NCBI GenBank assembly: GCA_949840885.1
Contig: CATKYJ010000002.1
Coordinates: 14,115-78,114, forward strand
Direction of reading: 5' to 3'
Length of the DNA: 64,000 nt
From: an uncultured Acetatifactor sp.
Lineage (GTDB): Bacteria; Bacillota; Clostridia; Lachnospirales; Lachnospiraceae
Shown here: positions 1 through 16,456 of the stretch, piece by piece
Layout of the letters: the number at the start of each line of letters is the position of its first letter
Position numbering within the stretch: the first letter of the stretch is position 1
Translations under genes and position numbers: made by a program
Notes under the pieces: model-generated
Databases searched by the model: none
What the model saw: the letters and a program-made list of their open reading frames with translations, nothing else
Told to the model about the DNA's origin: nothing

Positions 1-494
1 ACGAACACCAGCGCACTCTTCACGTCGATGGTGAAAGCCATGATCATGGCACCGAAGACGATGATGGGCGAGCGCAGGAACAGACGCAGCACCAGGTTCA
101 CGCCGGACTGAATCTGGTTCACATCGCTGGTCATGCGTGTGATCATGGTGGACGTCCCGGCCTTGTCGATATTAGTGAAGTCCAGGCCCTGGATATGGTC
201 GAACAGGGCCTGGCGGAGCTTTGCGGAAAACCCTACCGCCGCCTTGGCCGCGAAAAACTGGGCCGTAATGGAGGACACCAGTCCTATCACCGCCAGCGCA
301 AGGAGGCACAGGCCCATCCGCCAGATGTGGCCCTCGTCCGCCCCGCCGGCGCCTCCGGCATTGATGCCCCTGTCGATGATGCTTGCCATCACCAGCGGCA
401 CCAACAGCTCGAAGAAAGCTTCCAGGAGCTTAAACAGCGGCGCCAGGACGGATTCCTTTTTGTAGTCGCGTAAGTACTTCATTAACCTATTCAT
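1..494 (-). CDS. ABC transporter permease/ATP-binding protein, N-terminal part (runs off window)
   Basis: Reverse strand reads MNRLMKYLRDYKKESVLAPLFKLLEAFFELLVPLVMASIIDRGI...TMITRMTSDVNQIQ, typical ABC exporter TMD; AGAGG RBS upstream. Confidence 0.85.
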   Translation of the reverse strand, partial: MNRLMKYLRDYKKESVLAPLFKLLEAFFELLVPLVMASIIDRGINAGGAGGADEGHIWRMGLCLLALAVIGLVSSITAQFFAAKAAVGFSAKLRQALFDHIQGLDFTNIDKAGTSTMITRMTSDVNQIQSGVNLVLRLFLRSPIIVFGAMIMAFTIDVKSALVF

Positions 495-584
495 GCTTGC
501 ACCTCTAAATAATATTTTGTTCCCCGATTCTTTCCATCGGACCGATGACACCTAAGTCCCGGAAAGGGAATCTATCAACATATG

Positions 585-1163
585 TCAATGCTTTTTGGGA
601 GAAGTCTCTTTACCGGAAAGGACTCGATAATTGTGCCGGATATACAGGCTCCATGAGACCAGCATCACCACAACACACAGCATTATCAAACCATTGGAGA
701 CCGCTGCCGGAATATGGGGCCATAGCAGGTGAACCAGTATCGTAAGATACAGCAGCGCCGTGGTCACCTTGCCGTGCCAGACCGCTCCCGTCACCTTGCC
801 GGACTTGCGGATGACCAGGAGGGAGGTCAGCCCCACTGAGGCCTCTTTCACGGACAGCAGCGCCAGCGGGAAGACAATCATCGGAAACCGTGTCACAAGG
901 CAGACTAACATTGCCGCCTGGGTCAGCTTGTCCGCCACCGGATCCAGCATCTTGCCCAGATTGCTCACCATATGGAAACGCCTGGCGATGTATCCGTCCG
1001 CCAGATCTGTCAGTCCGGAGAGAAACAACAGCCCTGCTGTTGTCAGATATTCTTTCCTAACACAGTATGTCCATATAAATACCGGGATCAACACCAGCCG
1101 GAACGCGGACAAAAGATTGGGAATCGTGATCATTCTGTTTTCAACTTCCTTGTCAGAATGCAT
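585..1163 (-). CDS. CDP-alcohol phosphatidyltransferase (PgsA-like)
   Basis: TIPNLLSAFR and DLADGYIARR...SNLGKMLDPVADK signature; AAGGAG RBS. Confidence 0.9.
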   Translation of the reverse strand: MHSDKEVENRMITIPNLLSAFRLVLIPVFIWTYCVRKEYLTTAGLLFLSGLTDLADGYIARRFHMVSNLGKMLDPVADKLTQAAMLVCLVTRFPMIVFPLALLSVKEASVGLTSLLVIRKSGKVTGAVWHGKVTTALLYLTILVHLLWPHIPAAVSNGLIMLCVVVMLVSWSLYIRHNYRVLSGKETSPKKH

Positions 1164-1218
1164 GTTTATATCTCTCCTTTGTGCCTCTCTTCATGCCCAC
1201 TCAAATTCTCTCCCTGTC

Positions 1219-1797
1219 CTACATATGCAAATGCTCAAATTCTCTGCACTTGGTTTCCGCATATTTAAAGTCTACAGTATTCTTTATGTATTTGGGCATA
1301 TTCTCGTCCCCAAACAGCTTGTGCGAATTGGTCTTCTGCCTGTAAATAACATTGGCATTCTTTATAATCATGGATATATTAGCCGTAATGAAAGAATATT
1401 CTTTCATCACTACCTGTTTATAGCTGAAATCCGTTTCGTCAGAAATATAGTATTGTGTAAGTTCATCGGGCGGAACCGGAATCATGTTGCTCAGCTTCAA
1501 TGTCCCTTTCAATTCCAATGCACCGGAAACCGTATCCCTGGTGGTCATCCGTATAATCGGGACAATGCTTTTTCGTATCTCCCATGTTCCGTCTTGTTTT
1601 ATGAGATAATCCGATCTTTTGGGGGAAGAAAATGGAATATAGTAGTGAAATTCATCATGTCTGAATACGATGCCCGGATATTTTCGAGTATGGGAACGAT
1701 TCTCTTCCTTATTGTCAAATACATTCCGTAATCTGGAATCAGACCTGAGAAATGCAATATATCTGTCCGAAACACTGTAAATGCCAACCTTGCCCAT
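1219..1797 (-). CDS. Type III toxin-antitoxin toxin, ToxN/AbiQ family endoribonuclease
   Basis: Motifs YIAFLR, RKYPGIV, YYIPFSSPK, GTLKLSNMIPVP; preceded by terminator and antitoxin-like RNA. Confidence 0.85.
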   Translation of the reverse strand: MGKVGIYSVSDRYIAFLRSDSRLRNVFDNKEENRSHTRKYPGIVFRHDEFHYYIPFSSPKRSDYLIKQDGTWEIRKSIVPIIRMTTRDTVSGALELKGTLKLSNMIPVPPDELTQYYISDETDFSYKQVVMKEYSFITANISMIIKNANVIYRQKTNSHKLFGDENMPKYIKNTVDFKYAETKCREFEHLHM

Positions 1798-1814
1798 AGC
1801 TTCCTTTCACCTGC

Positions 1815-1842
1815 AAAAAGTGGGTGGGGAAATCCCACCCAC
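1815..1842 (-). terminator. Intrinsic terminator between antitoxin RNA and toxin gene
   Basis: GTGGGTGGG-ATTTC-CCCACCCAC followed by TTTTT on minus strand. Confidence 0.85.
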
Positions 1843-1885
1843 GATTTTAAAGCCTCCCGTTTTTGGCGGGGAAACACCTGATTTT
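1843..1885 (-). ncRNA. Putative type III antitoxin RNA (ToxI-like), one 37-nt unit
   Basis: AAAAUC-AGGUGUUUCCCCGCCAAAAACGGGAGGCUUU-AAAAUC; can form an H-type pseudoknot (GGUG/CGCC and UUCCC/GGGAG); lies between promoter and terminator upstream of toxin. Confidence 0.7.
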
Positions 1886-1908
1886 GAGCATCGCTGCTCT
1901 CTACTATT

Positions 1909-1937
1909 ATTTTACGAAATCGAAAGTTATATGTCAA
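1909..1937 (-). promoter_or_regulatory. sigma-A promoter of the type III TA operon
   Basis: TTGACA (1937-1932), 17 bp, TAAAAT (1914-1909). Confidence 0.8.
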
Positions 1938-3176
1938 TCCTTTTTGGCAATTTTTCCATTGTCCATGGCCAACACTCTGTCATACTTATCCAGTATCCCG
2001 TCCTTAATCCGATGGGTTATGGTAAGCAGGGTCAGATTCTCCATGTCCAGCAGCTCCTGCTCTATCTCGTTGGCGGTCTCCACGTCAATGGCAGAGACCC
2101 CCTCGTCCAGAATCAGAAAGTCAATCCCCCGTATGAGAGCCCTTGCCAGAGCAATCCTCTGCTTCTGCCCTCCGGACAGATTTGCCCTGTCCTCGCCGCA
2201 GTCCCCATCCGCTTTCGCCTGTCAATGCCAGCTTTTCTCCTTTCTCTATAATCAGGCTCAAATCCGTCAGAACCGGGATTTCTTCCCGGTACCGGAAGCA
2301 TAAATCATGGATACGGATTTCGTGAAAAAACGCCGGCTCTTTCGTCCACGCAAAGCATTCTTCCCTGCCGTCTATGATATCCAACAGCCTGTCTATCACC
2401 GGCTTGCACCCTCTAAGCAGCGGGACGCATTGGGAAAACAGCATGATTCCGCCCCCGAAGAACCCATAGAGCGACACGAACATCTGCAACGAAAACTGAT
2501 AGAAAGCCTCCGCCAACGCCCTGTTTACTTCCAGAAACCGAAGACGCATCTTCTGGAAGACCCCGAAAGCGGATACAACGTCATACCCATTCAATGCCTC
2601 TTTCAGCTGAACCGACAAGGCTGCTTCACCCACCGTTTTCTCTGCCATGCTCCTCTTTAGATATTTTGTAAGGATCTTTGGAACCACAAAAGATAGCAGG
2701 GAACACAGAACTGCCACCCCGGCCAGCGGCGGACTGTAGACTGTCATGACAGCCAAAGAGAGAACAACGGAGACCCCCGTGCCGGCCAGACTGAAAATGG
2801 GCGAAGAAAAATTGCTGGCCAGTGTGTTTACATCATTGTTTATCATAGAGATATATTCTGCCGTATCCCGTCCGTGAAAACCCCCAGTCCCTTTGCGCAT
2901 AATGCCGTCATACAAATCATTTCGCAAGTCCTCCATGAACCTGTTTTTAAACTTATTTTTTGTCATTGCCCCCAGGTAATACGCAAATCCTGCCACAACG
3001 ACTATCAGAACCACATACCACAGCATATTCCGGAATCCGTCCATATTTCCCTGTACAATGGCATCCAGCATGTTCTTCTCGAAAACAGCGGATACGGATG
3101 CGGCGGTGCTTTCGATGATACTGATGCATAGTGCCAGCAAGGCCAACAGGGAGTGCTTTTTCATGTATCGAAACAT
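1934..3176 (-). pseudogene. Degraded ABC exporter (TMD+NBD) with internal deletion and frameshift
   Basis: Reading frame breaks inside Walker A (ALTGESG-WGLRR); signature LSGGQKQRIALARALIRGIDFLILDEG continues immediately in another frame to TGA at 1934; TMD also looks shortened. Confidence 0.8.
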
Positions 3177-3196
3177 ACCCTCACCCCTCGTATTTT

Positions 3197-4036
3197 TTAC
3201 GGCGCATCCTTTTTCCGCAGAAGAGGAGCTTTCCTTTTATTGGCAATTACGGAAAAGCTGCCATAATTCTCCACCATCAGACGCGCTGCATAGAGAAAGG
3301 GGACAATGGTGCCTACAGCATTGATGCTGTACACTTTCGTATCCCCGTCCTCCGTCTCCAGATCCAGTTCGCGAACCAGCTGGAGACTGGCAAATTCCGC
3401 CAGAAGCGCCTGCGCTTCCTCCAGGCTGCTGCCCAGGCGCTTTGCTATGACATTTAACGTACAGTGCCTGGGAGGCCTTTGATACAAAAGCAATAGCAGT
3501 TCCAGGGCTTTGGGCTTTGAAAGCGCAGAAAACAGCCGGCGGTATGTATCGTTGTCGGCAAAGAACGAACCGTAGCCCTCCGCAGGCTCCGGAAACAGAG
3601 AGAGAAAGGACAGTCTCTCCGAATCAATGCCCAAAAGAATGCCCTCATCCGTGCCATAATAGATGCTGTAATTGTGTGAAATGTCATCGGAAATCGCATT
3701 CAGCCCCATGCTTCCCGATTTCACCGCAGCCCACATCAGGCGGCAGATTTCTTTCAGCCGCATCTCCTCCGGCAGCGCCGCAGCATAATGGGGCAGAGCC
3801 TCCTGCATATTTTCCTCCGTAATGTCCTCACGCCCGAACAGGACATTTACGGATATGCCCAGCCTGTCCGCTATGGAGGGGATCAGGGAAATGTCCGGCG
3901 TACCTCCGGTCTCCCATTGAGAGACTGCCGAGCTGCTGACCCCCAGCGCCTCTCCCAGCTCTTTCTGGGTCAGCTTTGCCTCTTTTCTGTACTTTTGAAT
4001 CTTTCCGCCCTTTTCTATTTTATATAGTTTTATCAT
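3197..4036 (-). CDS. XRE-family HTH transcriptional regulator with C-terminal winged-helix-like region
   Basis: IQKYRKEAKLTQKELGEALGVSSSAVSQWETGGTPDI HTH_3 motif. Confidence 0.85.
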   Translation of the reverse strand: MIKLYKIEKGGKIQKYRKEAKLTQKELGEALGVSSSAVSQWETGGTPDISLIPSIADRLGISVNVLFGREDITEENMQEALPHYAAALPEEMRLKEICRLMWAAVKSGSMGLNAISDDISHNYSIYYGTDEGILLGIDSERLSFLSLFPEPAEGYGSFFADNDTYRRLFSALSKPKALELLLLLYQRPPRHCTLNVIAKRLGSSLEEAQALLAEFASLQLVRELDLETEDGDTKVYSINAVGTIVPFLYAARLMVENYGSFSVIANKRKAPLLRKKDAP

Positions 4037-4082
4037 AAGCCCATTCTATCAAAACAGCGATTAACAAAAAACATGGGAATTG

Positions 4083-4099
4083 TTTAAGATTTCTTTAAG
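4083..4099. promoter_or_regulatory. Direct repeat TTTAAG-N5-TTTAAG, OmpR-family-type operator candidate
   Basis: Exact hexamer direct repeat with 11-bp period upstream of the XRE gene promoter. Confidence 0.4.
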
Positions 4100-4104
4100 A
4101 GGCC

Positions 4105-4137
4105 AAAAAAGGGACTGCCACCGAAGCGACAGCCCCT
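4105..4137 (-). terminator. Probable intrinsic terminator after ABC exporter
   Basis: Imperfect GC-rich hairpin (GGGGCTGTCGC...GTGGCAGTCCC) followed by T6 on minus strand. Confidence 0.55.
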
Positions 4138-4164
4138 CCTCTCTGAACCTTACAGAGGGCAGCA

Positions 4165-5778
4165 TCACTGCAATGTCACCACTTCATCGCAGGCCTCCCG
4201 AATCTGCCTGTCATGAGTGATCACAATTACTATCTTATCTTCCTTTATCTGCTGCAGCATTTCCGTAAACAAAAGGATGCCGTCACTGTCCAGGGCGCTG
4301 GTGGGCTCGTCAAAGCAGAGCACCTGCGTCTCTTTCAGCAAAGCCCTCACAATGGCAATACGCTGCTTTTGGCCGCCGCTTAAATTGCTGCTCTGGCTGT
4401 TGACCTGGGTTTCATACCCCTGGTCTTTTTCTGCCACAAAATCCAGCAGCGCGTAGCGGCTCAGTTCGTCTGCGGATTTTTTCGCCTCTTCCCGGCCGTA
4501 GAAGAGATTGTCGGAAATCGTGCCCTCCATCAGCAAAGGCTCCTGGTTCACAAAGCCCACCATGTCCTTTCTCAATTCCTCCATGTTGATTTCCGATATC
4601 TGCTGCCCGTCCCAGAGCACTTCCCCCGCTTCCGGCTGCAGAATGCCCATCATCAGCAAGAATAAGGTGGATTTGCCTGTTCCGTTTTCCCCGCAGAGCG
4701 CGTATACTTTTCCTTTTTCAAATTTGTAGGAGAACCGCTTCAGTATGTTCTTTTCGCCATAGGAAAATGTCACGTTCTGCAGTTCGACTGCATGTACTTC
4801 CTGCAAAACCCTCTCCCCGCACTGCTCTTTGGGCATTGCCAGCAGCTGGTCCATCATGTCGCAGGAAACCTTATATGTCTCATAGAACTTCCCGCCCTGG
4901 ACTATGTACTGAACCACTGCGATCAGCTGCTGCATGTAAAGGAGCGCCATAGCAAAGTTCTCCACCTGCGATGCCCCTCCGTTTTGTGTGCTGGTAAAAT
5001 AGAGCCCCAGCAGCAGCGCAGGAACCAGCGCTCTGCCTGTCACATTGGACATATTTGACGTAAAGTTGTCAAAGTCCAGATATTTCACTGCCACCTTTAC
5101 AAGTTTTTCCCCGGCTGCCTGGAAATCCCGCTGCGTGGCCTGGTACCAGGAATTCAGCTTTATCGTCAGTACCCTGGCCAGTTTTTTACATACCACGGCC
5201 ACAAACGAAAATTGTTCCTTTCTATGCGCTTCATTTAGCTGGTAATACCGCTTCCTTGTAAAAAAATAAATGGCAGCATATATGCCGATTCCTGCTAGAG
5301 CAAATATCCCCACATAGAAGCTGACCCTGAAAAGCAATATAAGTATCACGATACCCTGAATTGCCTTGAATGCAAGAAGTGGTACTTTCTCCACATAGAA
5401 ATCCATAATGTAGACCAGGTCATTGTTCATCCGCTGACCCAGATAAGAACTGTCTGCCCCCGAGATCTTCTGATAGCTGATCCGCAGCATCTGCTGGAGG
5501 GAGTCCTTTTCCGCCGCCACCAGCAGCTCGTTAGACAATTTGTAATTAAAATGCCCAAAGCAATGGGTTCCGATGGCCTCCGCTGCAATCAGGCACAGCA
5601 TCCACACCGTCAGCGTCCAAATTCCCGCCCCTCCCGCGGTGATGCCTGACAGCATCTTGGAAACCAGCTGGGGAATCAGAAGCTGCGTGATGATAACGCA
5701 CAGATAGGCCAGCAAAAGGATCAGGTATTGCCCTTTTCTTTCTTTCAGGTATTTTGAGTAACGTAGTTTTTGCTTCAT
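4165..5778 (-). CDS. ABC exporter, fused permease/ATP-binding (peptide/bacteriocin-type, no C39 peptidase domain)
   Basis: N-terminal TM helices; GENGTGKST, LSGGQKQR, CFDEPTSALD, ITHD motifs. Confidence 0.9.
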   Translation of the reverse strand: MKQKLRYSKYLKERKGQYLILLLAYLCVIITQLLIPQLVSKMLSGITAGGAGIWTLTVWMLCLIAAEAIGTHCFGHFNYKLSNELLVAAEKDSLQQMLRISYQKISGADSSYLGQRMNNDLVYIMDFYVEKVPLLAFKAIQGIVILILLFRVSFYVGIFALAGIGIYAAIYFFTRKRYYQLNEAHRKEQFSFVAVVCKKLARVLTIKLNSWYQATQRDFQAAGEKLVKVAVKYLDFDNFTSNMSNVTGRALVPALLLGLYFTSTQNGGASQVENFAMALLYMQQLIAVVQYIVQGGKFYETYKVSCDMMDQLLAMPKEQCGERVLQEVHAVELQNVTFSYGEKNILKRFSYKFEKGKVYALCGENGTGKSTLFLLMMGILQPEAGEVLWDGQQISEINMEELRKDMVGFVNQEPLLMEGTISDNLFYGREEAKKSADELSRYALLDFVAEKDQGYETQVNSQSSNLSGGQKQRIAIVRALLKETQVLCFDEPTSALDSDGILLFTEMLQQIKEDKIVIVITHDRQIREACDEVVTLQ

Positions 5779-5823
5779 TTTTCGTCCCTTTCTGTACTGT
5801 CAGTTTTTAAATACAACTCATAC

Positions 5824-5875
5824 TTTCATATGAAATTGCTAAATTTATTATAGCAGGTTATTTATATGACAGCAA
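5824..5875 (-). promoter_or_regulatory. Promoter of ABC exporter with downstream palindromic operator
   Basis: TTGCTG-17-TATAAT with extended TG; perfect palindrome TTTCATATGAAA at 5824-5835. Confidence 0.6.
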
Positions 5876-5921
5876 GGGCTAAGAATATTTTTCAGACAGT
5901 TCCCCCTGTGTCCCGGAACAA

Positions 5922-6560
5922 TTATGAAGTACCTGCTTCACTTAAAAATTGTGCAATTGCGCTTTCCGTACCAGACTGCATAAGGTTTTGAAATAACTGT
6001 ACTTTCTCCATCTGTATATCGCTTGCTTTTATTTTTAATGCGTCCAACAAAAATGTATGCTCCAGTATAACCACCAGTTCTTCTTTGGCAGCCTCCGGAA
6101 TCTCTGTCCCTTTATCCTTTTCAAATTGTCTAAAATAAGATTCCAATTCAGCATGCATAATTTCATGTGTCAAAATTGAAATCGTAGTTTCGATTTCCTC
6201 TGTATCATTTACCAGAACATAAAAACCGTCATCATATTCAAGCGCATATCCGGTGAGATTCTCGCCATTGGGAATCATGATTTCAGTTCCTATCAGCACC
6301 GCAACAATTCTGTCAAAGGGTACCGTATATAATCGATGCCTTCTAAGCCATCTTTCATAATATTCAAAATATGCATTACGTTCCGTATATGAAACTATTT
6401 TTTCGATTCTCTGATTTGCTGCCTCTTTTCCACTTAAAACAAGAGATATGATTATTCTCCGCATCAAAGCTAAAAAATCAGCATATTCCTCTCTCAATAC
6501 GATTCTTCTATTATAATCATTTATCCAGTTATCCACCTTAGTGCTGTAAATTATATGCAT
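5922..6560 (-). CDS. Putative zinc metallopeptidase (HExxH zincin)
   Basis: GYALEYDDGFYVLVND...ILTHEIMH plus downstream EE; start lies 7 bp after the rSAM stop. Confidence 0.6.
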   Translation of the reverse strand: MHIIYSTKVDNWINDYNRRIVLREEYADFLALMRRIIISLVLSGKEAANQRIEKIVSYTERNAYFEYYERWLRRHRLYTVPFDRIVAVLIGTEIMIPNGENLTGYALEYDDGFYVLVNDTEEIETTISILTHEIMHAELESYFRQFEKDKGTEIPEAAKEELVVILEHTFLLDALKIKASDIQMEKVQLFQNLMQSGTESAIAQFLSEAGTS

Positions 6561-6567
6561 TTTTATA

Positions 6568-7848
6568 CTAAAAGCTGCTCTGTAAAAAATTCATCACAGC
6601 TTCCGTATCATTATGTATCATCCAGATGAATTCACTATACACATGCTTATAGAATTCACAAAGCATTGATTTCTCTGACACACCTCCAGTCTCGCTATAA
6701 ACCCTGCAGGGACACGAACAGCAAAATTTCTTCCATGGACAATTCCTGCACTCCTCGACCAGAGTTGTCTGTCTGTTTCTCATTGTCTGAAACCAAGCAT
6801 CCTCCTGGATATTTTTTTCTATATCAATGTTTTGCATATTGACATTTCCTATACAGCCTTTGTCAATAAAGCAGGATTCTTGGCACAGATAAATATTACC
6901 ATTTGGAACAACAAACAATTGATTCATGCCTGCGCCGCAAGGTTCCTTGTAACACATAAAGGGATGAAATAGCAATAAGCTTAAAAAGTAATACATAGCA
7001 TTCGCCTCATAGTACTGCCTATCCTGCAGCATTTGCTTGCAAAAAGCCACATACTCTTTGGCAATCTCTTCCATACTAATTGTGTCTGCCAGAACCTCTT
7101 TGCCTCTTCCAATTGCGCTGATAAGGTTAGCGCGGAATTGATTACATCCTGTAAAGGCAAGCAAGTCTTTTACGCTCTTAAATTGCCCTTTTCGATGGAT
7201 CACTGATATTGTACTATAGCGAATCCCGCTCTCTTTCAATAACTGAATGTTATTGACCACTTCATCAAAAGTACTTCTTCCGTCAGCATAGATTCTGTTG
7301 TCGTTGAATTCCCCCACCCCGTCCAGGCTTAACCCAACAGAAAATTTATATGCCTTAAAAAAAGCAATCATTTCTGCCGTTAAAAGCGTTCCGTTTGTTT
7401 GGACAGTGAATCCTACTTTCTTTCCTGCCTTCTCTGCGATATGGAGGATTTGCGGCACTGCCTTGCTTATCATATTATAATTGAGCAAGGCTTCTCCCCC
7501 ATTGAATTCCACGCAAACCGATGTACTGCATTTTTCAAGTGAAATAAACTTTTCAAAGGCTTTAACTGCTGTCTCGCAGCTCATATTTTCGCCGCAATTC
7601 GTAGCACTTTCAAAGCAATATCTGCACCTCAGATTACATTTCTCGGAAGTTTCTAAAATCAATAAGTTAAACTCTTCGAGCTTTGCTTCATCAGAAACCT
7701 GGCTTATTAATTTATCTTCCATTAACTGATCATATATTGGGCCATTGCTGCCAATACGTATACCAGTGTTTTCTGTCTCAGCCATTTTAGCTAACTCTCT
7801 ATAGCCGGAATCTATCTTCCAGACTCCAGTATCGATATTCAGCACCAA
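6568..7848 (-). CDS. Radical SAM/SPASM-domain protein, peptide-maturase-like (probably extends to ATG 7950 through an in-frame TAG)
   Basis: CNLRCRYC, EFNGGEALL, QTNGTLL, SLDG; SPASM cysteines MCYKEPCGAG...YLCQES...CRNCPWKKFCCSCPCR...LC. Confidence 0.9.
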   Translation of the reverse strand: MVLNIDTGVWKIDSGYRELAKMAETENTGIRIGSNGPIYDQLMEDKLISQVSDEAKLEEFNLLILETSEKCNLRCRYCFESATNCGENMSCETAVKAFEKFISLEKCSTSVCVEFNGGEALLNYNMISKAVPQILHIAEKAGKKVGFTVQTNGTLLTAEMIAFFKAYKFSVGLSLDGVGEFNDNRIYADGRSTFDEVVNNIQLLKESGIRYSTISVIHRKGQFKSVKDLLAFTGCNQFRANLISAIGRGKEVLADTISMEEIAKEYVAFCKQMLQDRQYYEANAMYYFLSLLLFHPFMCYKEPCGAGMNQLFVVPNGNIYLCQESCFIDKGCIGNVNMQNIDIEKNIQEDAWFQTMRNRQTTLVEECRNCPWKKFCCSCPCRVYSETGGVSEKSMLCEFYKHVYSEFIWMIHNDTEAVMNFLQSSF

Positions 7849-7866
7849 AGCCTCTTCGCCTCTTTG

Positions 7867-7950
7867 CTAAAACATAAAATTGTAGCTTTGCTCTTTACCG
7901 TTCGATCCCTCTCTCTGTTCGATGATGAGTGTTTTGATAATCTGCCCCAT
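7867..7950 (-). CDS. 27-aa ORF MGQIIKTLIIEQREGSNGKEQSYNFMF, in frame with the rSAM gene and ending at TAG
   Basis: Strong AGAAAGGCGG RBS before ATG 7950; TAG at 7869-7867, then QRGEEALVLNIDTG continues in the same frame. Confidence 0.6.
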   Translation of the reverse strand: MGQIIKTLIIEQREGSNGKEQSYNFMF

Positions 7951-8149
7951 CTTTATATACCGCCTTTCTGCTGCCTTTTTATCTCTCGCTTGGAACTAAA
8001 TACAGTTTAATCCTTAACCATCCCATTTACCACTAACCAGACAGAAATCTTTTCGTTTCCATTTAGGTTGAGTACTTGTATTTTGTAGTTTTTCGTAATA
8101 TAATTATTTCTGTCACTAAAAACCAAACACACCCGATGGAGGATATCTC

Positions 8150-10057
8150 ATGCCAGTACATAACGCCAATCTGCTTATCAGGGAAGCCAGGATAAAAGCC
8201 GGACTCACGCAAGAACAGCTCTCCGAGGGCATCTGCACGCCGCAGGCGCTCTCCCGGATAGAGACTGGCACGGCAAACGTCAGCCATGTCACCTTTCAGG
8301 CGCTTATGGAGCGCGCCGGGGTGCAATATGGCCGTTTTCCGGTCTTCAGCAGCCGGGACGGGTTTGAATGCTTCTATGGATTGAAGCGTGTCCGTCTCTA
8401 TCTGGATGCCTGGCAGTTAGAGTCTGCCTATGAAGAGCTTGGCAAGCTGGAGGAGAAGAACTGGGCCGACAACCGGCTATACTATCAGGAGTGGCTGCTG
8501 CTCCACTGCAGGCTGCAATTTCTTTCGGGGTGCTGCTCTCATCAGGAGAATTATGACACTCTGCTGGACGCACTGCACATTACCAGGCCGGATATTGACT
8601 TGTCGGGCTTTCATGCGCTCCTCCTGTCGCAGAATGAGATTCAGCTTTTGACATTAATAGCCCAAGAGGCTCTCTGCCTGGATATGGCGACGCTCTGCCG
8701 CCAGATTTGTGCACAGCTGGATACCTGTCTGGCGGACAGTACCTTTGCACTGATCGAAAAAGAGAGGATGCAGGCGGATGCTGCCATTGTTTATGTAAAA
8801 TATCTGATTGGAGTAGAAGACTTTGACAATGCTTTTGAATTGGCTGACGCTTATCGCAAAAAGGCTGCTTTCAATGCCTATGATGCGCCTCTGGTCGAAC
8901 TGACCTTTTTGACCGGATTATGCAGTCATTATACCGGAAAGACCGAACTTGCGGATACCCATATTAAGGCGGCTTTCTACTCCGCCCAGGCAATCGAAAG
9001 CTGCTATGCTACCAGATGCAGGGATTATCTTAAAAAAGAGACTAGCTATTCGATTACCGGAAGTATGAAAGACTTTCCTACCATTCCCCTGACAGCATTC
9101 CCGCCTAAAGCTTTCACGGATTCCGTTCATGTTACGGACGGAATCCGTGAAGAAGATACTGCGGATGCCTATACCTTAGGACATCTGATTCAAGATTTGC
9201 GCTTGGAACAGAATGTTAGCCAGTCGGTTCTCTGTCATGGTTTGTGCAGCAAATCAAAACTTTCCAAAATAGAAAATGACTCTTTGCAGCCAGATATTGC
9301 CCTTGCTACTGCCTTGCTACAGAGACTTGGCATATCTGGGAAAATATTCCCTTCTTGGGGAAATAAAAAAGAAGCAGAATTTTATGATTTGCACTTCAAG
9401 GTGATACATAATCGAAATGTTTCAAAAGAGACACTAAAAAAATATTTAAGCCAAATGAAAACAATGCTTGATTCGAAAGATGTTCTGTATCATCAAGAAT
9501 ATCTCGCCAATGTAGCCTTTCAATCGGATTCTTCTGATGAAAGAATCCGCTGTCTGACCGAAGCATTACTACTTACGCTGCCAAGCTTTGATATACATGA
9601 AATCTACAGTTACAGACTGACATGCGAAGAATTATCTATCCTGAATAATATAGGCCATGAATACAGAAATACAACCAAGTCACATTTATGCTCTCTATAT
9701 TTTTTGCAGATATTATCCTATGTGCAAAAAACAGAACCTGACGTTTTATTACAAGCCGGATTTCTGCCACTTACTGATTATATGTACTGCCATAGCCTAT
9801 ATATATTAAAATTCTATCAGGAGACTACTATGCTCCCTGATTCCTTTGATATGTCTGTCATAAAACGCTATATCAATAGCTACGGTCTTTTCTTATTCTG
9901 TTATTCTCAAGCTTTGGGAGAATGTAGCCGCCGTGAAGAAGCACATACGACTGCGATACAATCGTTTGCTATTAGTATATTAACAGAACACCCCAAAAAT
10001 GCAACTGCGCTAAAACGATATCTTCATGACGATTTTGCCCTTGATTTGAAATATTAA
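8150..10057 (+). CDS. Rgg/PlcR (RRNPP)-like regulator with two tandem HTH+helical modules
   Basis: HTH1 IREARIKAGLTQEQLSEGICTPQALSRIETG; HTH2 IQDLRLEQNVSQSVLCHGLCSKSKLSKIEND; GGAGG RBS. Confidence 0.75.
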   Translation: MPVHNANLLIREARIKAGLTQEQLSEGICTPQALSRIETGTANVSHVTFQALMERAGVQYGRFPVFSSRDGFECFYGLKRVRLYLDAWQLESAYEELGKLEEKNWADNRLYYQEWLLLHCRLQFLSGCCSHQENYDTLLDALHITRPDIDLSGFHALLLSQNEIQLLTLIAQEALCLDMATLCRQICAQLDTCLADSTFALIEKERMQADAAIVYVKYLIGVEDFDNAFELADAYRKKAAFNAYDAPLVELTFLTGLCSHYTGKTELADTHIKAAFYSAQAIESCYATRCRDYLKKETSYSITGSMKDFPTIPLTAFPPKAFTDSVHVTDGIREEDTADAYTLGHLIQDLRLEQNVSQSVLCHGLCSKSKLSKIENDSLQPDIALATALLQRLGISGKIFPSWGNKKEAEFYDLHFKVIHNRNVSKETLKKYLSQMKTMLDSKDVLYHQEYLANVAFQSDSSDERIRCLTEALLLTLPSFDIHEIYSYRLTCEELSILNNIGHEYRNTTKSHLCSLYFLQILSYVQKTEPDVLLQAGFLPLTDYMYCHSLYILKFYQETTMLPDSFDMSVIKRYINSYGLFLFCYSQALGECSRREEAHTTAIQSFAISILTEHPKNATALKRYLHDDFALDLKY

Positions 10058-10086
10058 TTTCTCCACAGCCTGGCAAAATGTCCATA

Positions 10087-10317
10087 TTATAATGTTATAT
10101 ACTTAACATCATCTTCTTCCTCCCAATCCCCACAGGGCATAATCCCCTCATCGCCCTCATTGCCCGTCCCCGGCTGCTCGCTTCCGGTCAGAACCTCCCC
10201 GGGCAAGCCTCCCTCGCCAGTCCCTGTGGGAGGCAGCACTGCCGGAGCCAGCAACAGACTTGCAGCCAGAGCCTGTGTCAGAATCTTCTTGATCCCATTT
10301 TTCCATTTCATTCCCAT
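10087..10317 (-). CDS. 76-aa secreted acidic propeptide (signalling or precursor peptide candidate)
   Basis: AAAGGAG RBS, TGgTATAAT at 10363-10355; basic N-terminus plus hydrophobic signal-like stretch, Gly/Pro/Glu linker, C-terminal GIMPCGDWEEEDDVKYITL. Confidence 0.7.
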   Translation of the reverse strand: MGMKWKNGIKKILTQALAASLLLAPAVLPPTGTGEGGLPGEVLTGSEQPGTGNEGDEGIMPCGDWEEEDDVKYITL

Positions 10318-10537
10318 ATCAATCTTCTCCTTTGTGATATTTTTTCCAGCACACATTATACCACGGCTGTATCTTTAAGATTGATTATAGCAACATAATA
10401 AACCAGATAGAATATCCTGATCGGAAAACATTCTGTTTCTATTTATGTTGAATGCAGCGATAAAGCCTCTTAAAGCGGTGGCAAATTTGACCGTTCGTGA
10501 GTATAATAAAAGAAAAGGTTCCCACAGGAGACCGGCT

Positions 10538-10975
10538 ATGGCAATCACATCCCTGGACATTCTGAATCTGTCACATTCTCTGAAAGACATCTGCGAGGTA
10601 AACTGCAATACCCCCGAATGTCTTTCCCAGGCTTTGAAGCTTTTGATGCAGTACAACCTGATTCAGGCGAATCTGCAGTTCTCCAGGCAGTTCTGTCAGG
10701 CTGCCGATGCCCAGGCCTGTCTAACTGCAGCGCACGCTGCCCACACTCCGGCTGTACCCGCCTCGCCTTGCCCGCATGCTTCTGCTCTTCCTGCTGCTCC
10801 TGATGCACATGCATCCACTGCGTCCGCGGCTTTTTGTCCCCAGGTTTCCACTGCGCCTCCGGCTCCCTGTCCGCATAGCTCTGTTGCCCCTGCCGCCCCT
10901 GTCTCCCCCACCACCGACAGGCCTCCCATCCGGCTCGACATTGGCGACCCGTTTCTGGCGGACTATGAAGAATAA
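10538..10975 (+). CDS. Hypothetical 145-aa protein with five 11-aa Pro/Ala/His repeats
   Basis: AGGAG RBS, TATAAT upstream; repeat block at aa 67-121. Confidence 0.6.
   Translation: MAITSLDILNLSHSLKDICEVNCNTPECLSQALKLLMQYNLIQANLQFSRQFCQAADAQACLTAAHAAHTPAVPASPCPHASALPAAPDAHASTASAAFCPQVSTAPPAPCPHSSVAPAAPVSPTTDRPPIRLDIGDPFLADYEE
10736..10900 (+). repeat. Degenerate 33-bp (11-aa) coding tandem repeat, 5 units
   Basis: AAHTPAVPASP / CPHASALPAAP / DAHASTASAAF / CPQVSTAPPAP / CPHSSVAPAAP. Confidence 0.7.
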
Positions 10976-10979
10976 ATTT

Positions 10980-12185
10980 TCAGTATTCTTTCCTCAACAG
11001 AAAATCCGCTAAATACATGATCTTCACCCCATCAATATTGCCTGCGGCGAGTTCGTCAAGGGTGACGATATACTTCGGATAGTGGTCTCTGATTTCAAGC
11101 AGATTTGCAAGCTCGCGGTCAGATTCCTCCGGCAGGTTGCGGCACACCTGTACATAAATGCGCTCATCCCGCCGCACTGCCACAAAGTCGATTTCTTTTG
11201 TCTCGTTCTTGCCGATATAGACCTGGTAGCCCTTTCTGCGCAGTTCGAAATATACAATATTTTCAAGCATAGCCGCAACGGCTGTAGGGTGAAATCCCAT
11301 CATGCAATATTTCAGAGAAGCATCGGCAAGATAAAATTTCTCCTGGGTTTTCAGCACGGATTTTCCCTGCAGGTCGTACCGCTGACAGCGGTAGATGACA
11401 AAGGCTTTTTCCAGCCATTCCAGGTAGTTGTACACCGATTCCACAGAGAGGGCGCGTCCCTCGCTTTTCAGAAACTTCACGATAGCATTGGCGGAAAAGT
11501 TCTTGCCCACATTTTCAACCACATATTTTACAACGCGGTTGAATAGGTCAAAGTTTGTGATATGATGTCGTTTCGTTATATCGCTTGTGATAACGGAATG
11601 GTATATGCCCTCAATGATCTGATAGGCAGTTCTTTGATCAAACTGACTCAGCGCCACAACCGGGAAGCCGCCCATGCGAATGTATTCGGCAAGCATTTCT
11701 TTGGACGTGGCTCCGCTTTCTTTTTTGAACTCCATATACTCGGCAAAGGACAGCGTAAACACAGGAATAGAGACATAACGTCCCGTCAGATAGGTGGATA
11801 TCTCACTTGACATCAGCCTGGAATTGGATCCGGTTACATATAGATCCGTGTTGGCGTTTTCAAGCAGACTGTTGACGGCTTTTTCCCAACCGGTGATTTC
11901 CTGCACTTCGTCCAGCAAGAGATAATAGCGCTCTCCATCGGTCATTTTCTCCCTGATACCATGGTACATATCCTTATCCGTCATGCCGTCGTCAAAATCC
12001 TCTGAGGTATAGCGCATACGGATGATGTGGTCTGCAGGAATGCCGCTTTTTATCAAATCATTCTGCAGCATTTCCAAAATTGTGGATTTTCCGCAGCGGC
12101 GTATACCCGCTAGGATTTTCACCAGCGGCACGTCACGATAAGTTTTCAGCATATCTAAATAGTGGGGTCTAATAATAATTTTCAT
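10980..12185 (-). CDS. AAA+ ATPase (AAA_14 + DUF4143 type)
   Basis: GIRRCGKS Walker A, LLLDEVQ Walker B, TGSNS, GGFP, LENIVYFEL...EIDFV; GGAGG RBS. Confidence 0.88.
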   Translation of the reverse strand: MKIIIRPHYLDMLKTYRDVPLVKILAGIRRCGKSTILEMLQNDLIKSGIPADHIIRMRYTSEDFDDGMTDKDMYHGIREKMTDGERYYLLLDEVQEITGWEKAVNSLLENANTDLYVTGSNSRLMSSEISTYLTGRYVSIPVFTLSFAEYMEFKKESGATSKEMLAEYIRMGGFPVVALSQFDQRTAYQIIEGIYHSVITSDITKRHHITNFDLFNRVVKYVVENVGKNFSANAIVKFLKSEGRALSVESVYNYLEWLEKAFVIYRCQRYDLQGKSVLKTQEKFYLADASLKYCMMGFHPTAVAAMLENIVYFELRRKGYQVYIGKNETKEIDFVAVRRDERIYVQVCRNLPEESDRELANLLEIRDHYPKYIVTLDELAAGNIDGVKIMYLADFLLRKEY

Positions 12186-12272
12186 AGATGCCTCCTTTTT
12201 ATTAGTATATGTGAAAAACTTTGGAACAGTCAATAGTTTTTTCTTTTATACCATAAAAACTTTCCCATGTGT

Positions 12273-13208
12273 TCAGATGCCAAACTGGCAGAAAGCAATG
12301 CTGTAGTTATCTTCAGGATAGTTTTCCACATTGAAAGACATCTCTTTCATTATGTCATTCTCATAAGCGGTAAAATTTGCAGTCGGGGCATACTGTAAAT
12401 TTAACTGTCGTGCAAGTATATGTTGCTTTCCGCTCGTGAGTCGGGTAACTTGGCAAGTTTTAGCAACGGTCAATATAAATTCCTCCCAGAGCAGACGTCT
12501 GCCATTTGGCAAAACCGTGGCATCAATGTGTGCAGATTTCAGGCCAGCGCTGCCTTGCGGCTCCTGGGCCTCCCGGGGCAATAGTTCCGTCTCCAGAACC
12601 CCTGCAATGCCTTTGCCTGTCAGCTTCCCATAGGCCTCTTTCCTGGCCCACAGCCTGTAGAACAGCTTCTCCCGCTCCTCGCCCGCCTGCTCTGCCGCTA
12701 TCGCCTCCGCTTCCCGCTTCGAAAAAAAGCGCCCGGAAATCTTCTCCACGTTTTTCCCGCAGTGCTGCTGGATATCTGCTCCGATTTCCTCTTCGGAGAC
12801 GGCGCAGAGGACGTAGTTCCCTGAATGGGACAGGTTGAACTGTAATGGAAAATCCCTGAAATACGGTTTTCCGTTCTCCCCATATCGGTATGCAAGAGGG
12901 AAATATGGGAGATCCTCTAATCTCTCCAGCAATTCAGTGACAGAATATCTGCCTAAGTCGTAAAAACTGCCCGCGCTGCCTGCGCGGACCGCCTCCCCCA
13001 CAGCCAGCTGCAGCAAAAGCCCGCCTCCCAGGCAGGCCGCCCGTGCTTTGGTCGTTCTCATGCGCCCGGCTCTTTCGCGCCTCTCTTCGTCCACCCTGAA
13101 AGAGGCCCTCTGAAAGAGGGCCTCCCATCCTGAACCTTGTCCTAAATTTTGTTCCGGAACTTCTTTTATCAACTCTTCTATCGAAAGAAGATACCTAGCC
13201 TCATACAT
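12273..13208 (-). CDS. 4'-phosphopantetheinyl transferase (Sfp type) with C-terminal insertion
   Basis: YGENGKPY, FNLSHSG, IGADIQ, FYRLWARKEAYGKLTGKGI. Confidence 0.88.
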   Translation of the reverse strand: MYEARYLLSIEELIKEVPEQNLGQGSGWEALFQRASFRVDEERRERAGRMRTTKARAACLGGGLLLQLAVGEAVRAGSAGSFYDLGRYSVTELLERLEDLPYFPLAYRYGENGKPYFRDFPLQFNLSHSGNYVLCAVSEEEIGADIQQHCGKNVEKISGRFFSKREAEAIAAEQAGEEREKLFYRLWARKEAYGKLTGKGIAGVLETELLPREAQEPQGSAGLKSAHIDATVLPNGRRLLWEEFILTVAKTCQVTRLTSGKQHILARQLNLQYAPTANFTAYENDIMKEMSFNVENYPEDNYSIAFCQFGI

Positions 13209-13211
13209 CTC

Positions 13212-14993
<1,782 letters not shown>

Positions 14994-15038
14994 TTTGATT
15001 CCTCGTTTTCCGTGTCCTTGCTATGACGCTCTTCTATT

Positions 15039-15132
15039 CTGTATTTTCCCGTTTATTTCCTATCTGTATTTCGCATCCCTGTATTTCGCATTCCCGTATT
15101 TCATATTCCTGTATTTCGTATTTCTGTAATTC
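15039..15132. repeat. Intergenic 15-bp degenerate tandem repeat (CTGTATTTCGCATTC-like)
   Basis: Units start at 15064, 15079, 15094, 15109, 15124 plus a degenerate copy at 15039. Confidence 0.8.
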
Positions 15133-15187
15133 TTTTTTCGCTGTCCTGGAAATACTTCTGCCGTTTGCTGCGATCAGCCTTTGGCGT

Positions 15188-16456
15188 CTAGTTCTTCAAA
15201 GCCTCCCTATAGAACTCCACGAATTCTTGGTACCCCTCGGCCTCCAGCTGCTCTTTCTGGAATTTCTTGTTCTTGTTCATCCGAACCACCAGCACCTGCC
15301 CGCCCTCTTCTCTCGCTTTCTGGGCTTTGGCGATTACATCAGCCATGGCCTGGCCCTCTACGCCTTTCTCCACCAGGTAGGCTGTCTTTTTCGGCGCATT
15401 CGGCACCTGGAACCCGCTCTCCATCAAAAGCAGTATGATCCGCTCAAAGCCGATGGAGAATCCGCAGGCCGGCACATCCTTGCCGGTGAATTTCCCCACC
15501 ATCTTATCGTACCTGCCGCCGCCTCCGCAGCTTGCGCCCAGGCCAGGGATGGCGATCTCAAAGATGGGGCCCGTATAATAAGACATCCCCCGCACCAGCG
15601 TAGGGTCGAATACCATCCGAAAATCTGCCGTCTTCGCCGCCTCTACGCTGTCTATGATCTCCTGCAGGCCCTCCACCGCCGAAATCCCCTGAACTTGAGA
15701 TTCCCCCAGTTTCTCCGCCGCATACTGCAGACCATCTTCTGCCTGTTCCAGACCCGCGTACAGTTCCAGATAGCGCTCCACTGTGTCTGAAGCAAATCCG
15801 TTCTCCAGAAGTTCCGCCCTCACGCCGTCCATGCCGATCTTGTCCATCTTGTCCAAGGTAATAAAGACGCTATCGTAATCCTCCTCTTTAAACCCGCTGT
15901 CTGCCGCCATAGCTTTCAGAAGCTGCCTGTCGTTGATGCGGATTTCAAAGTCTTTGAAACCAATCTTCCCCAAAGTAGTAGTAGTAGCCAGGATAAGTTC
16001 GATCTCCGCCAGGTTGGAGGCCTCCCCGAAGATGTCAATATCGCATTGGGTAAACTGGCGGAACCGCCCTCTCTGGGGCCTGTCCGCCCGCCACACACTG
16101 CCCGTCTGCAGCGCCTTGAATGGGGCAGGCAGTTGGGCAACATTGTTGGAATAATACCGCACCAGTGGCACGGTCAGGTCATAGCGCAGCCCGCCGTCCA
16201 CCACTTCCTCCTCTGTAAGAGCCTCCGCTATCTTCAGCTTCTCACCCCTCTTTAAAATCTTGAAGATCAGCTTCTCATTGTCGCCGCCCTGCTTGTTGGT
16301 CAGGTTTGCAATGTTCTCCACGCAGGGAGTCTCAATGGAAGTAAATCCGTATTTGCCGTAGGTATCCTTGATCACGCCGATGACATAATCCCGAATCTGC
16401 ATCTCCTCCGGCAGGATATCCCGCATGCCCGTCACAGGCTTTTTACTCAGTGCCAT
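15188..16456 (-). CDS. hisS: Histidine--tRNA ligase
   Basis: GMRDILP, LRYDLTVP, WRADRPQRGRFRQFTQCDIDI, LVRGMSYYTG, GGGRYD, SIGFER; GGAG RBS before ATG 16456. Confidence 0.96.
   Translation of the reverse strand: MALSKKPVTGMRDILPEEMQIRDYVIGVIKDTYGKYGFTSIETPCVENIANLTNKQGGDNEKLIFKILKRGEKLKIAEALTEEEVVDGGLRYDLTVPLVRYYSNNVAQLPAPFKALQTGSVWRADRPQRGRFRQFTQCDIDIFGEASNLAEIELILATTTTLGKIGFKDFEIRINDRQLLKAMAADSGFKEEDYDSVFITLDKMDKIGMDGVRAELLENGFASDTVERYLELYAGLEQAEDGLQYAAEKLGESQVQGISAVEGLQEIIDSVEAAKTADFRMVFDPTLVRGMSYYTGPIFEIAIPGLGASCGGGGRYDKMVGKFTGKDVPACGFSIGFERIILLLMESGFQVPNAPKKTAYLVEKGVEGQAMADVIAKAQKAREEGGQVLVVRMNKNKKFQKEQLEAEGYQEFVEFYREALKN

Follow-up and report, generated by a model that had tools for sequence, protein, structure and literature searches.

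A four-gene radical SAM peptide cluster, apparently broken, beside a putative twin-module receptor in an uncultured Acetatifactor sp.

The window analysed here is a stretch of 64,000 nucleotides (nt) of DNA from an uncultured Acetatifactor sp. (assembly GCA_949840885.1, contig CATKYJ010000002.1, positions 14,115 to 78,114), and the block studied lies at window positions 4165-10975. This block is likely to be the damaged version of a four-gene cluster that, where intact, would cross-link and export a short His-rich peptide under the predicted control of a twin receptor and its peptide signal. The four genes encode a precursor of 39 amino acids (aa), a radical S-adenosylmethionine (rSAM) enzyme, a zincin-like protein and an ATP-binding cassette (ABC) exporter; the precursor gene is missing from the window and the rSAM gene is interrupted by a nonsense codon. 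Such clusters belong to the peptides synthesized on ribosomes and then modified post-translationally (RiPPs) that are matured by rSAM enzymes (RaS-RiPPs).

The biosynthetic cluster and its lesions

A preliminary description of the block had recognized six open reading frames (ORFs), for the exporter, the zincin, the rSAM/SPASM enzyme, a regulator with two helix-turn-helix (HTH) domains, a converging 76-aa peptide and an Ala/Pro-rich protein, and all six lie where it had placed them. The biosynthetic part is laid out as follows (lengths in base pairs, bp).

4165..5778, minus strand: ABC exporter of 537 aa, an open frame with no C39 peptidase domain (PF00664 and PF00005)
5922..6560, minus strand: stand-alone HExxH zincin-like protein of 212 aa with the motif HEIMH, its ribosome-binding site lost in the deletion
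6561..6567, no strand: junction of a 223-bp deletion in which the 39-aa precursor gene, a stem-loop and the Shine-Dalgarno site of the zincin gene were lost (counterparts at L001:9282-9511)
6568..7950, minus strand: rSAM/SPASM maturase with an N-terminal region resembling a RiPP recognition element (RRE), 460 codons with an in-frame TAG at codon 28 (7867-7869)

The damage is apparent from comparison with the single related locus in the genome collection (L001), which is labelled uncultured Acetatifactor and is 99% identical to the window locus. In L001 the position of the TAG is occupied by a Glu codon and the rSAM frame is open over 460 aa. The gap between the rSAM and zincin genes is 7 bp in the window as against 230 bp in L001. 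Immediately behind the rSAM stop the longer gap contains a 39-aa ORF whose Shine-Dalgarno site is strong, and it also contains a stem-loop (z -2.9) and the Shine-Dalgarno site of the zincin gene. Near-identical strains retain the precursor gene, and no copy of it was found elsewhere in the window's genome (89% complete) by regular expression and blastn. Read-through of the TAG was ruled out because L001 and three other runs have a Glu codon at this position. The 27-aa upstream ORF (7867-7950), listed in the preliminary description as one of three candidate substrates, is in frame with the rSAM gene and is simply the enzyme's own N-terminus.

Contigs of run X1 carry both the G>T change and the 223-bp joint (L001 9284-9508), and the joint was seen in X1 only. 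The rSAM codon is intact in three of the four runs compared (X2, X4 and X14, with neither base change nor joint) and the precursor is covered without the joint in six of seven runs, including X3, X6 and X11. All holders of the locus with a habitat label are mouse or gut metagenomes. Both lesions could be regarded as assembly errors in a strain whose cluster is intact, as they occur together in only one of seven runs, at a contig depth of 4-7. The window itself may derive from that run, which must be counted against the reading of a broken copy. This explanation is nevertheless very unlikely: the deletion ends at a 4-base microhomology, the bridging contig has 135 bases on its short side, and X1 has no intact allele and also has a second deletion matching the window. 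The second deletion, of 1344 bp (junction at window 4002; L050:10169-11512), takes away a fragment of an ABC permease, the gene for an ABC ATPase and the native beginning of a 279-aa HTH gene (3197-4036). The window copy is most likely a remnant that cannot make its product.

Irregularities were also seen in sister copies, namely a 4-bp frameshift at the exporter start (L050:8427), a 1-base deletion in the rSAM gene in one contig of run X14 (equivalent to L001:8486), in G061 (C5/C44) a repeated element with a contig break that separates zincin from exporter, and a frameshift-like precursor (P0132) in Caldanaerobacter subterraneus subsp. tengcongensis MB4. A 455-aa ORF lies between precursor and rSAM at L057:1633-3000. 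Lesions in sister copies may reflect repeated loss, and those changes found in a single contig may be errors.

Related clusters

A metagenome scan with an alignment of the rSAM enzyme gave 91 confirmed loci, 80 of which were kept. Seventy of these contained distant rSAMs without the precursor motif and were set aside; the three of them that were placed in the tree fell outside the clade. The remaining ten loci represent eight distinct clusters (L050, L051/L080, L052, L053/L056, L054, L055, L057 and L058) with rSAM identities of 31-100%. In all eight a single rSAM gene is followed by the gene for an HExxH protein and then by that for a homolog of the exporter, and a precursor of 36-40 aa is encoded in seven, the contig of the eighth (L054) beginning at the rSAM. 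The proposal in the preliminary description that a RaS-RiPP cluster is linked with a receptor of RRNPP type and the propeptide of that receptor is supported, the cluster genes occurring together with homologous rSAMs in every one of the eight. Nor does the enzyme group with the sulfatase maturases (TIGR03942, 119.5 bits against a cut-off of 349); ORFs with a sulfatase signature were absent from all nine loci checked, the lone regular-expression match being the rSAM itself.

The cluster enzymes and their close protein matches form one clade with support of 100/99 (L054 was not in the tree). About ten clusters at 50% identity score above 368 bits and the next scores 322. Named members come from Lachnospiraceae, Caldanaerobacter subterraneus, Peptoanaerobacter stomatis and Catonella. 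The family is rare, being found in two of 151 relatives and, besides the window's genome, in none of 400 family genomes and none of 398 class genomes (at most four candidates scored per genome, two genomes unscored).

The precursor family and its predicted chemistry

Using a profile built from the first seven precursors, a search gave 19 precursors among 22 candidates, several of them being the seeds. In 18 of the 19 a G-E or G-G anchor is followed by two or three four-residue units. The cores are of the type HGHG-H[WY]H[STA] in 14, HEHG-HGHS-HINR in one and HTDA-HIDG-HADS in two, and that of the window's lineage is HTNV-YING-HFDS. Position 1 of the unit is His in 40 of 41 cases and Tyr once. 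Only His, Asn and Asp occur at position 3 in the three divergent core types. This amounts to two or three aromatic-X2-X3 motifs per core in 18 of the 19. Cys follows the anchor in two of the 19; in the core of the intact allele a single Cys stands two positions beyond Asp. Viral contigs gave no match to a DNA pattern for the GEHGHGH core. Judged from the sequences, this family is very probably the enzyme's substrate.

The enzyme matches PF04055 and PF13186, and its CxxxCxxC motif and eight SPASM Cys are invariant in all 18 family members. The eight Cys presumably ligate two auxiliary clusters fully, as in SuiB, which forms C-C bonds, and unlike the thioether-forming CteB. The closest solved sequence is 5WGG, to which the profile aligns from position 46, and the RRE-like region is an N-terminal extension of ~95 aa for which an Atlas lead pointed to a cluster where 11% of the members are PqqD (score 0.90, 154 features in common).

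In the mechanism proposed, the putative RRE would bind the precursor leader and the enzyme would abstract a hydrogen from the activated C-beta of residue 3 in each (His/Tyr)-x-(His/Asn/Asp)-x unit, joining this carbon to the ring of residue 1 with a loss of 2 Da per unit. The predicted shift is -6 Da for HTN-V-YIN-G-HFD of the intact allele and -4 Da for the HGH-G-H[WY]H cores. The presence of two or three tetrads, mostly without a core Cys, makes i-to-i+2 cross-links likely, and their formation from ring to C-beta is the chemistry favoured here, with modest confidence. Passages of PMC11002830 list i/i+2 links from Trp or Phe to the C-beta of Asn or Asp, from Tyr-C3 to Asp and from His-C2 to Ala or Arg, together with the link from His-N to the C-beta of Tyr in dynobactin. 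Chaperone-dependent i/i+2 links made by WprB outside the families of enzymes that form three-residue cyclophanes (3-CyFE) are described in passages of PMC11851443, and three such motifs are read as -6 Da in a passage of PMC12912966.

A number of caveats count against this chemistry. The tetrad rule was read off the sequences post hoc, and the conservation of HGHGH is partly by construction, because the precursor matches came from a profile of the first seven. The best NCBIfam model for the enzyme is that of the thioether-forming PapB (135 bits against a cut-off of 340) and the curated cyclophane-maturase models all failed, e.g. YhhB with 83 against 445 bits. Scores for the 3-CyFE families XyeB, GrrM/OscB, FxsB, YhhB and AmcB were far below cut-off for six enzymes.

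The alternative that fares best retains the cluster and its regulation and changes the reaction to a bicyclostreptin-like ether between Ser-O and His-C-beta, to backbone N-C-alpha rings, or to desaturation or epimerization of His. Most cores do contain HGH, the last tetrad ends in Ser or Thr in 16 of 18 intact precursors, and the streptococcal HghC and HghB act on a C-terminal His-Gly-His according to a passage of PMC11002830. However, in bicyclostreptin (SWSKSHGH) the Ser stands three residues ahead of the His and the HGH is C-terminal, and its system has two rSAMs with an RRE apart from them (passages of PMC12445099 and PMC11002830), whereas in the cluster family Ser comes after the His residues, HGH is internal and there is one rSAM, and the window's lineage is without any HGH (HTN/YIN/HFD; HTD/HID/HAD). 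Such a reaction is conceivable but doubtful. A ranthipeptide or sactipeptide carrying the Cys thioether that PapB and CteB form is highly improbable, for although PapB is the best model, 5WGG the closest solved sequence and a Cys present in the intact allele's core, 17 of the 19 precursors lack a Cys after the anchor, including P0137 with the leader of the intact allele, and the PapB score is far below cut-off.

A second rSAM operon, with a 32-aa Cys-ended peptide, was observed at L057:8410-10106 on the same contig as one of the clusters with His-rich tetrads (His-tetrad clusters).

Predicted leader removal and export

The G..HExxH motif is invariant in all eight zincin homologs. In the model of the window protein, strands at residues 104-118 are followed by the HExxH-bearing helix (123-150), and the weak fold matches (YbeY, Wss1, M1 peptidases and thermolysin, Z 5-7) indicate a zincin-like arrangement only. 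Removal of the leader is the likeliest role of this protein because the exporter has no C39 domain. The zincin would cut near G-G/G-E and the ABC transporter would export the product, probably a narrow-spectrum growth inhibitor, a scheme that is reasonably probable as a whole. It has to be set against this that Foldseek gave no match at E<=0.001 and that the model is poor (pLDDT 65). The passages of a review of leader proteases, PMC10885120, name enzymes of M1, M16, M50, M61 and M103, and the term HEXXH is absent from these passages.

The HExxH protein might instead be an alpha-ketoglutarate-dependent tailoring enzyme, acting as a beta-hydroxylase or in oxidative cleavage. For alpha-ketoglutarate HExxH enzymes a zincin-like fold is described, together with the hydroxylation of His and Asp in cyclophanes that have already formed (passages of PMC12636437), and these two residues are carried by the present cores. 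The corresponding NCBIfam family, however, gave no match at E<=0.1 for the window protein or at E<=0.05 for four homologs. The HExxH proteins are, moreover, only 145-240 aa long, there is no other protease in the cluster and the hosts are anaerobes, and a tailoring role is considered unlikely.

The twin-module regulator and its predicted signal

The regulator contains two modules, each consisting of an HTH and a region of tetratricopeptide repeat (TPR) type, and the peptide gene converges on it.

8150..10057, plus strand: twin-module regulator of 635 aa, HTH-TPR (1-310) and HTH-TPR (341-635), PlcR/ComR-like, with two HTH_3 matches
10087..10317, minus strand: 76-aa propeptide, probably secreted, the predicted mature signal being residues 62-76 (10090-10134) after a conserved I-x-P
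9300..10116 (approximate), no strand: tract exchanged between strains (window compared with L001), comprising the 3' end of the regulator gene (module 2) and the 3' end of the converging peptide gene

The two halves of the regulator align at 26% identity (E 1.5e-12) as a tandem repeat of modules of ~300 aa. An AlphaFold model (pLDDT 89) shows two modules of HTH and helical repeat, and Foldseek placed PlcR first (E 3.9e-5, template modelling score to target 0.57) with ComR and PrgX lower; Pfam gave no TPR match, though the model is of helical-repeat form. Of the earlier label "Rgg/RRNPP-like" the RRNPP part is supported and the Rgg part is not, the best fold match being PlcR. The family comprises 584 clusters at E<=1e-10. 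Two HTH signatures are present in 114 of the best 120 homologs (44-98% identity), across which TPR2 is more variable than TPR1 (2.02 as against 1.51 bits). Within the genus, 20 of 201 genomes contain the regulator. Passages of PMC12700828 speak of five or nine TPRs in the core, with the HTH being optional, and describe no twin form, and passages of PMC10075063 set the receptors at 250-500 aa, a range that the 635-aa regulator exceeds.

A twin or split HTH-TPR regulator with a converging, putatively secreted peptide was found in four of the seven His-tetrad clusters that could be assessed. In other lineages it takes the form of a 601-aa twin (L051), a 604-aa twin (L052) or a split pair of 315 and 316 aa (L058), each with a converging peptide. 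These regulators are distantly related, that of L052 sharing ~22-26% identity in short stretches.

The propeptide has four K/R in its first 11 residues and a hydrophobic stretch from residue 16, a conserved pattern that may mark a Sec-type signal sequence, and a net charge of -11 after residue 29. Its gene lies 29 bp from the receptor stop, in keeping with the 10-100 aa adjacency criterion given in PMC10075063 (passage). An ORF with a basic-hydrophobic N-terminus converges on the 3' end of the regulator in 16 of 17 genus loci, and the acidic tail of these peptides follows [IV]-x-[PVT]-[CY]. The propeptide had been the second candidate substrate, a role which does not suit a peptide that travels with the regulator and also occurs beside unrelated cargo.

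Comparison of the window with L001 revealed a marked local divergence. Nucleotide identity is 94-99% over the first 750 nt of the regulator gene and 62-70% in the exchanged tract; module 1 is 94-100% identical, whereas module 2 beyond its HTH is 57-63% identical. In the peptide gene identity falls from 94.5% over codons 1-67 to 52% over codons 68-75. As identity drops at both 3' ends, a single tract spanning both was therefore exchanged, module 2 and the peptide tail being swapped together.

A model of the complex of the receptor with peptide residues 45-76 passed a mark that was reached by 116 of 157 solved complexes and by 2 of 215 mismatched pairs, with a score of 0.72 as against 0.01 for the best of three controls. 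The runs agree in at least 77% of contacts and the partner pLDDT is at least 56. In this model 39 of the 42 receptor contacts lie in residues 398-628 (module 2), and the only peptide residues to touch the receptor are 62-76, exactly those after I-M-P.

The predicted pairing and its link to the cluster are weakened on three counts. Three of the seven assessable clusters (L053, L055 and L057) have no such regulator in the fetched flank. The pass of the complex model may reflect likeness rather than binding, because the similar complexes PlcR-PapR and ComR-ComS have been solved. The predicted contact residues are also no more variable than the rest of module 2 (15/38 as against 65-77/197, p 0.46-1.0).

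Secreted cargo proteins of 95-96 aa with I-x-P-H after the signal sequence were seen at L038:9990-10280 and L040:5412-5699; this I-x-P-H and the I-x-P of the propeptides are possibly a shared processing site.

Candidate operators

Alignment of the regions upstream of regulators (26 regulator matches, 20 regions fetched) brought out a 27-bp box. It was tested as a cargo box in 19 regions (L041 and L045 left out) and as a peptide box in 16.

8044..8070, minus strand: box A, 27-bp candidate operator upstream of the biosynthetic operon, the top match in the whole genome
8004..8009, minus strand: TAAACT, predicted to be the -10 element for the biosynthetic operon and lying 34 nt downstream of box A
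10424..10450, minus strand: box B, second operator copy, upstream of the propeptide gene and not in the training set
10384..10389, minus strand: TATAAT, predicted to be the -10 element for the propeptide gene and lying 34 nt downstream of box B

Leave-one-out scores for box A were 19-38 bits in 15 of the 19 regions and 12 bits in two (shuffle maxima 3-14), the two regions without it both having truncated regulators. In 16 of the 19 the cargo strand has a -10-like hexamer 34 nt downstream of the box. Box B is the second-best match in the 4.4-Mb genome (26.9 bits, the next being 18.1); it is present in 13 of 16 loci, and the propeptide -10 element stands at the 34-nt offset in 12 of 16. A generic promoter scan was uninformative (7 sites as against 12.5 in shuffles). 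On sequence, the layout is that of an activator which would drive its own signal and the adjacent operon.

The proposed scheme is that the propeptide would be exported by Sec and cut near I-x-P, and that its acidic C-terminal ~15-mer would re-enter the cell and bind TPR module 2. The two HTHs of the single chain would act as a built-in dimer on the 27-bp box, and the regulator would activate two promoters with poor -35 elements, that of the propeptide gene, giving positive feedback, and that of the operon. This sequence of events from export to activation of both promoters is put forward with good confidence. The following qualify it. The distant clusters L051, L052 and L058 gave no box (<=10.2 bits); it is below full strength in four of the 19 cargo regions and missing in three of the 16 peptide regions; and the genus loci are kin, some of them near-identical, and not independent.

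It could also be that regulator and propeptide are a genuine signalling pair which does not control this operon, the cluster having landed in a variable slot. The cargo beside the regulator differs between genomes, and three of the seven assessable clusters are without it. Against this, box A and its -10 element point into the cargo whatever its kind, with the same 34-nt spacing as at the propeptide gene, and distantly related twin regulators stand at the same cluster type in three other lineages. An uncoupled cassette is improbable. Given activation as proposed, the window strain would still signal but make no product.

Varied cargo and neighbouring genes

Other rSAM operons stand beside the same regulator in L033, L034, L035, L039, L044 and L048, two of them with acyl-carrier proteins, and further cargo includes an S8 peptidase with DUF1611, ABC exporters and solute-binding lipoproteins. 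Small ORFs with ribosome-binding sites in such rSAM operons (L044:5366-5506, L048:6714-6836, L033:6818-6916 and L034:7619-7768) are candidate precursors of further RiPP families. A second, distant twin-HTH regulator of 677 aa was seen at G000:C19:63997-71813, upstream of and co-directional with a gene cluster whose 335-aa, carrier-like 98-aa, 429-aa and 477-aa proteins resemble the rSAM/acyl-carrier cargo of L034/L035.

10445..10975, plus strand: Ala/Pro-rich ORF containing degenerate repeats of 11 aa, probably starting at 10538 (145 aa)

The 11-aa period that had been noticed in this ORF is borne out (24 matches at lag 11 as against 10.3 expected, 0/2000 shuffles), and no DNA-level repeats lie behind it. 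No Pfam, NCBIfam or Atlas match was obtained for the protein, and its repeat region is missing in L032. Among 121 genus genomes, 14 contain homologs, which often lie well away from the regulator, and most carriers are without the rSAM, itself present in only two of 151 relatives. The last of the three earlier candidate substrates is accordingly a neighbour and not part of the system.

Pfam returned ABC_membrane and ABC_tran without C39 for the exporter, Radical_SAM and SPASM for the enzyme and two HTH_3 stretches for the 635-aa protein, with a sub-threshold match only for the zincin and none for the 76-aa peptide; no NCBIfam family cut-off was reached by any protein of the block, and Rfam had no match in window positions 1-16000. 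The block had been called AT-rich, which is correct for the zincin gene (35.5% G+C), the rSAM gene (40.0%) and the 3' half of the regulator gene (36.8%), the window average being 51.4%, but not for the ABC gene (49.6%), the 5' half of the regulator gene (51.1%) or the peptide gene (54.5%). Elsewhere in the window a ToxN-family type III toxin gene lies at 1219-1797 on the minus strand (PF13958, E 5e-30), with no toxI RNA found at Rfam gathering thresholds, and an ABC exporter gene at 2121-3176 on the minus strand is cut to its membrane domain, with no complete ATPase; the comparison with L050 breaks at 2482.

Relation to known systems and implications

The nearest parallels are the streptococcal SHP/Rgg RaS-RiPP operons, above all those of the HGH subfamily and bicyclostreptin type, which likewise have an HTH-TPR receptor divergent from an operon of rSAM, precursor and exporter, a peptide signal and, in many precursors, His-Gly-His, although bicyclostreptin shares only the letters HGH (passages of PMC12445099, PMC13361665 and PMC11002830). 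In contrast, the present system has a 635-aa twin receptor and a signal with a putative Sec-type leader, an acidic tail and a converging gene, as well as a single rSAM with a fused RRE-like region, a stand-alone zincin and internal repeated tetrads without Ser-x-x-His. The marks of the HGH subfamily, a C-terminal HGH with Ser three before His and two rSAMs with a stand-alone RRE, are absent here. Triceptides (the 3-CyFE products of XncB, OscB, YxdB, HaaB and YhhB, and MicB) and the WprB peptides resemble the present cores in having several aromatic-x-X3 motifs, with His or Tyr first, Asn or Asp third and some motifs spaced four apart. The enzyme, however, is a CteB-like SPASM protein with a probable RRE that scores far below the 3-CyFE cut-offs, its cross-link is a prediction, and the links given in the literature passages include none with His at position 3.

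With PlcR-PapR and ComR-ComS (HTH-5TPR, RRNPPA clan A) the receptor shares a PlcR-like module fold, a box before both target and peptide genes and, as predicted, a propeptide of Sec type with a C-terminal active part; it differs in joining two modules into a single chain (split over two adjacent genes in L058), of which module 2 alone is predicted to bind the peptide. The ranthipeptide maturases CteB and PapB have a layout of RRE, radical SAM and SPASM that the enzyme probably shares and give the best sequence matches, but here there is no conserved substrate Cys, eight SPASM Cys are invariant and scores are well under cut-off.

A RaS-RiPP system under the control of a peptide signal is thus known in kind, and the precursor family and the twin receptor were not found in the literature searched. 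No paper on either was found, though tables and supplements of primary papers may list the family; likewise no paper joined HGHGH with "radical SAM" and "precursor peptide", and the passages of PMC9389541 do not mention the family. Standard RRNPP detection misses twin receptors because of their length, and no Lachnospiraceae are named in the published list of 196 RRNPP-linked clusters as given in passages of PMC10075063.

In streptococci the link of SHP/Rgg to radical SAM operons led to ~600 clusters and many new reactions (passages of PMC11002830). It is tentatively suggested that gut Lachnospiraceae may contain a large undescribed class of twin RRNPP receptors (the 584 clusters), in which a swappable acidic peptide is sensed by one module and a 27-bp operator is read by both HTHs, with exchangeable biosynthetic cargo, one such cargo being a new RiPP family in which serial rings of the type His-x-His/Asn/Asp would be made by a CteB-like RRE enzyme, with links from His to the C-beta of His among them. 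If it is true that each twin receptor fronts exchangeable cargo, gut Clostridia would offer a parallel mining handle comparable to streptococcal SHP/Rgg. The parts open to experiment are the candidate operator, the candidate 15-residue signal, the two natural alleles and the precursor family with its predicted shift of -4 or -6 Da. The window strain, in keeping its signal while losing its product, may together with the lesions of sister copies represent the repeated loss of a costly secreted good.

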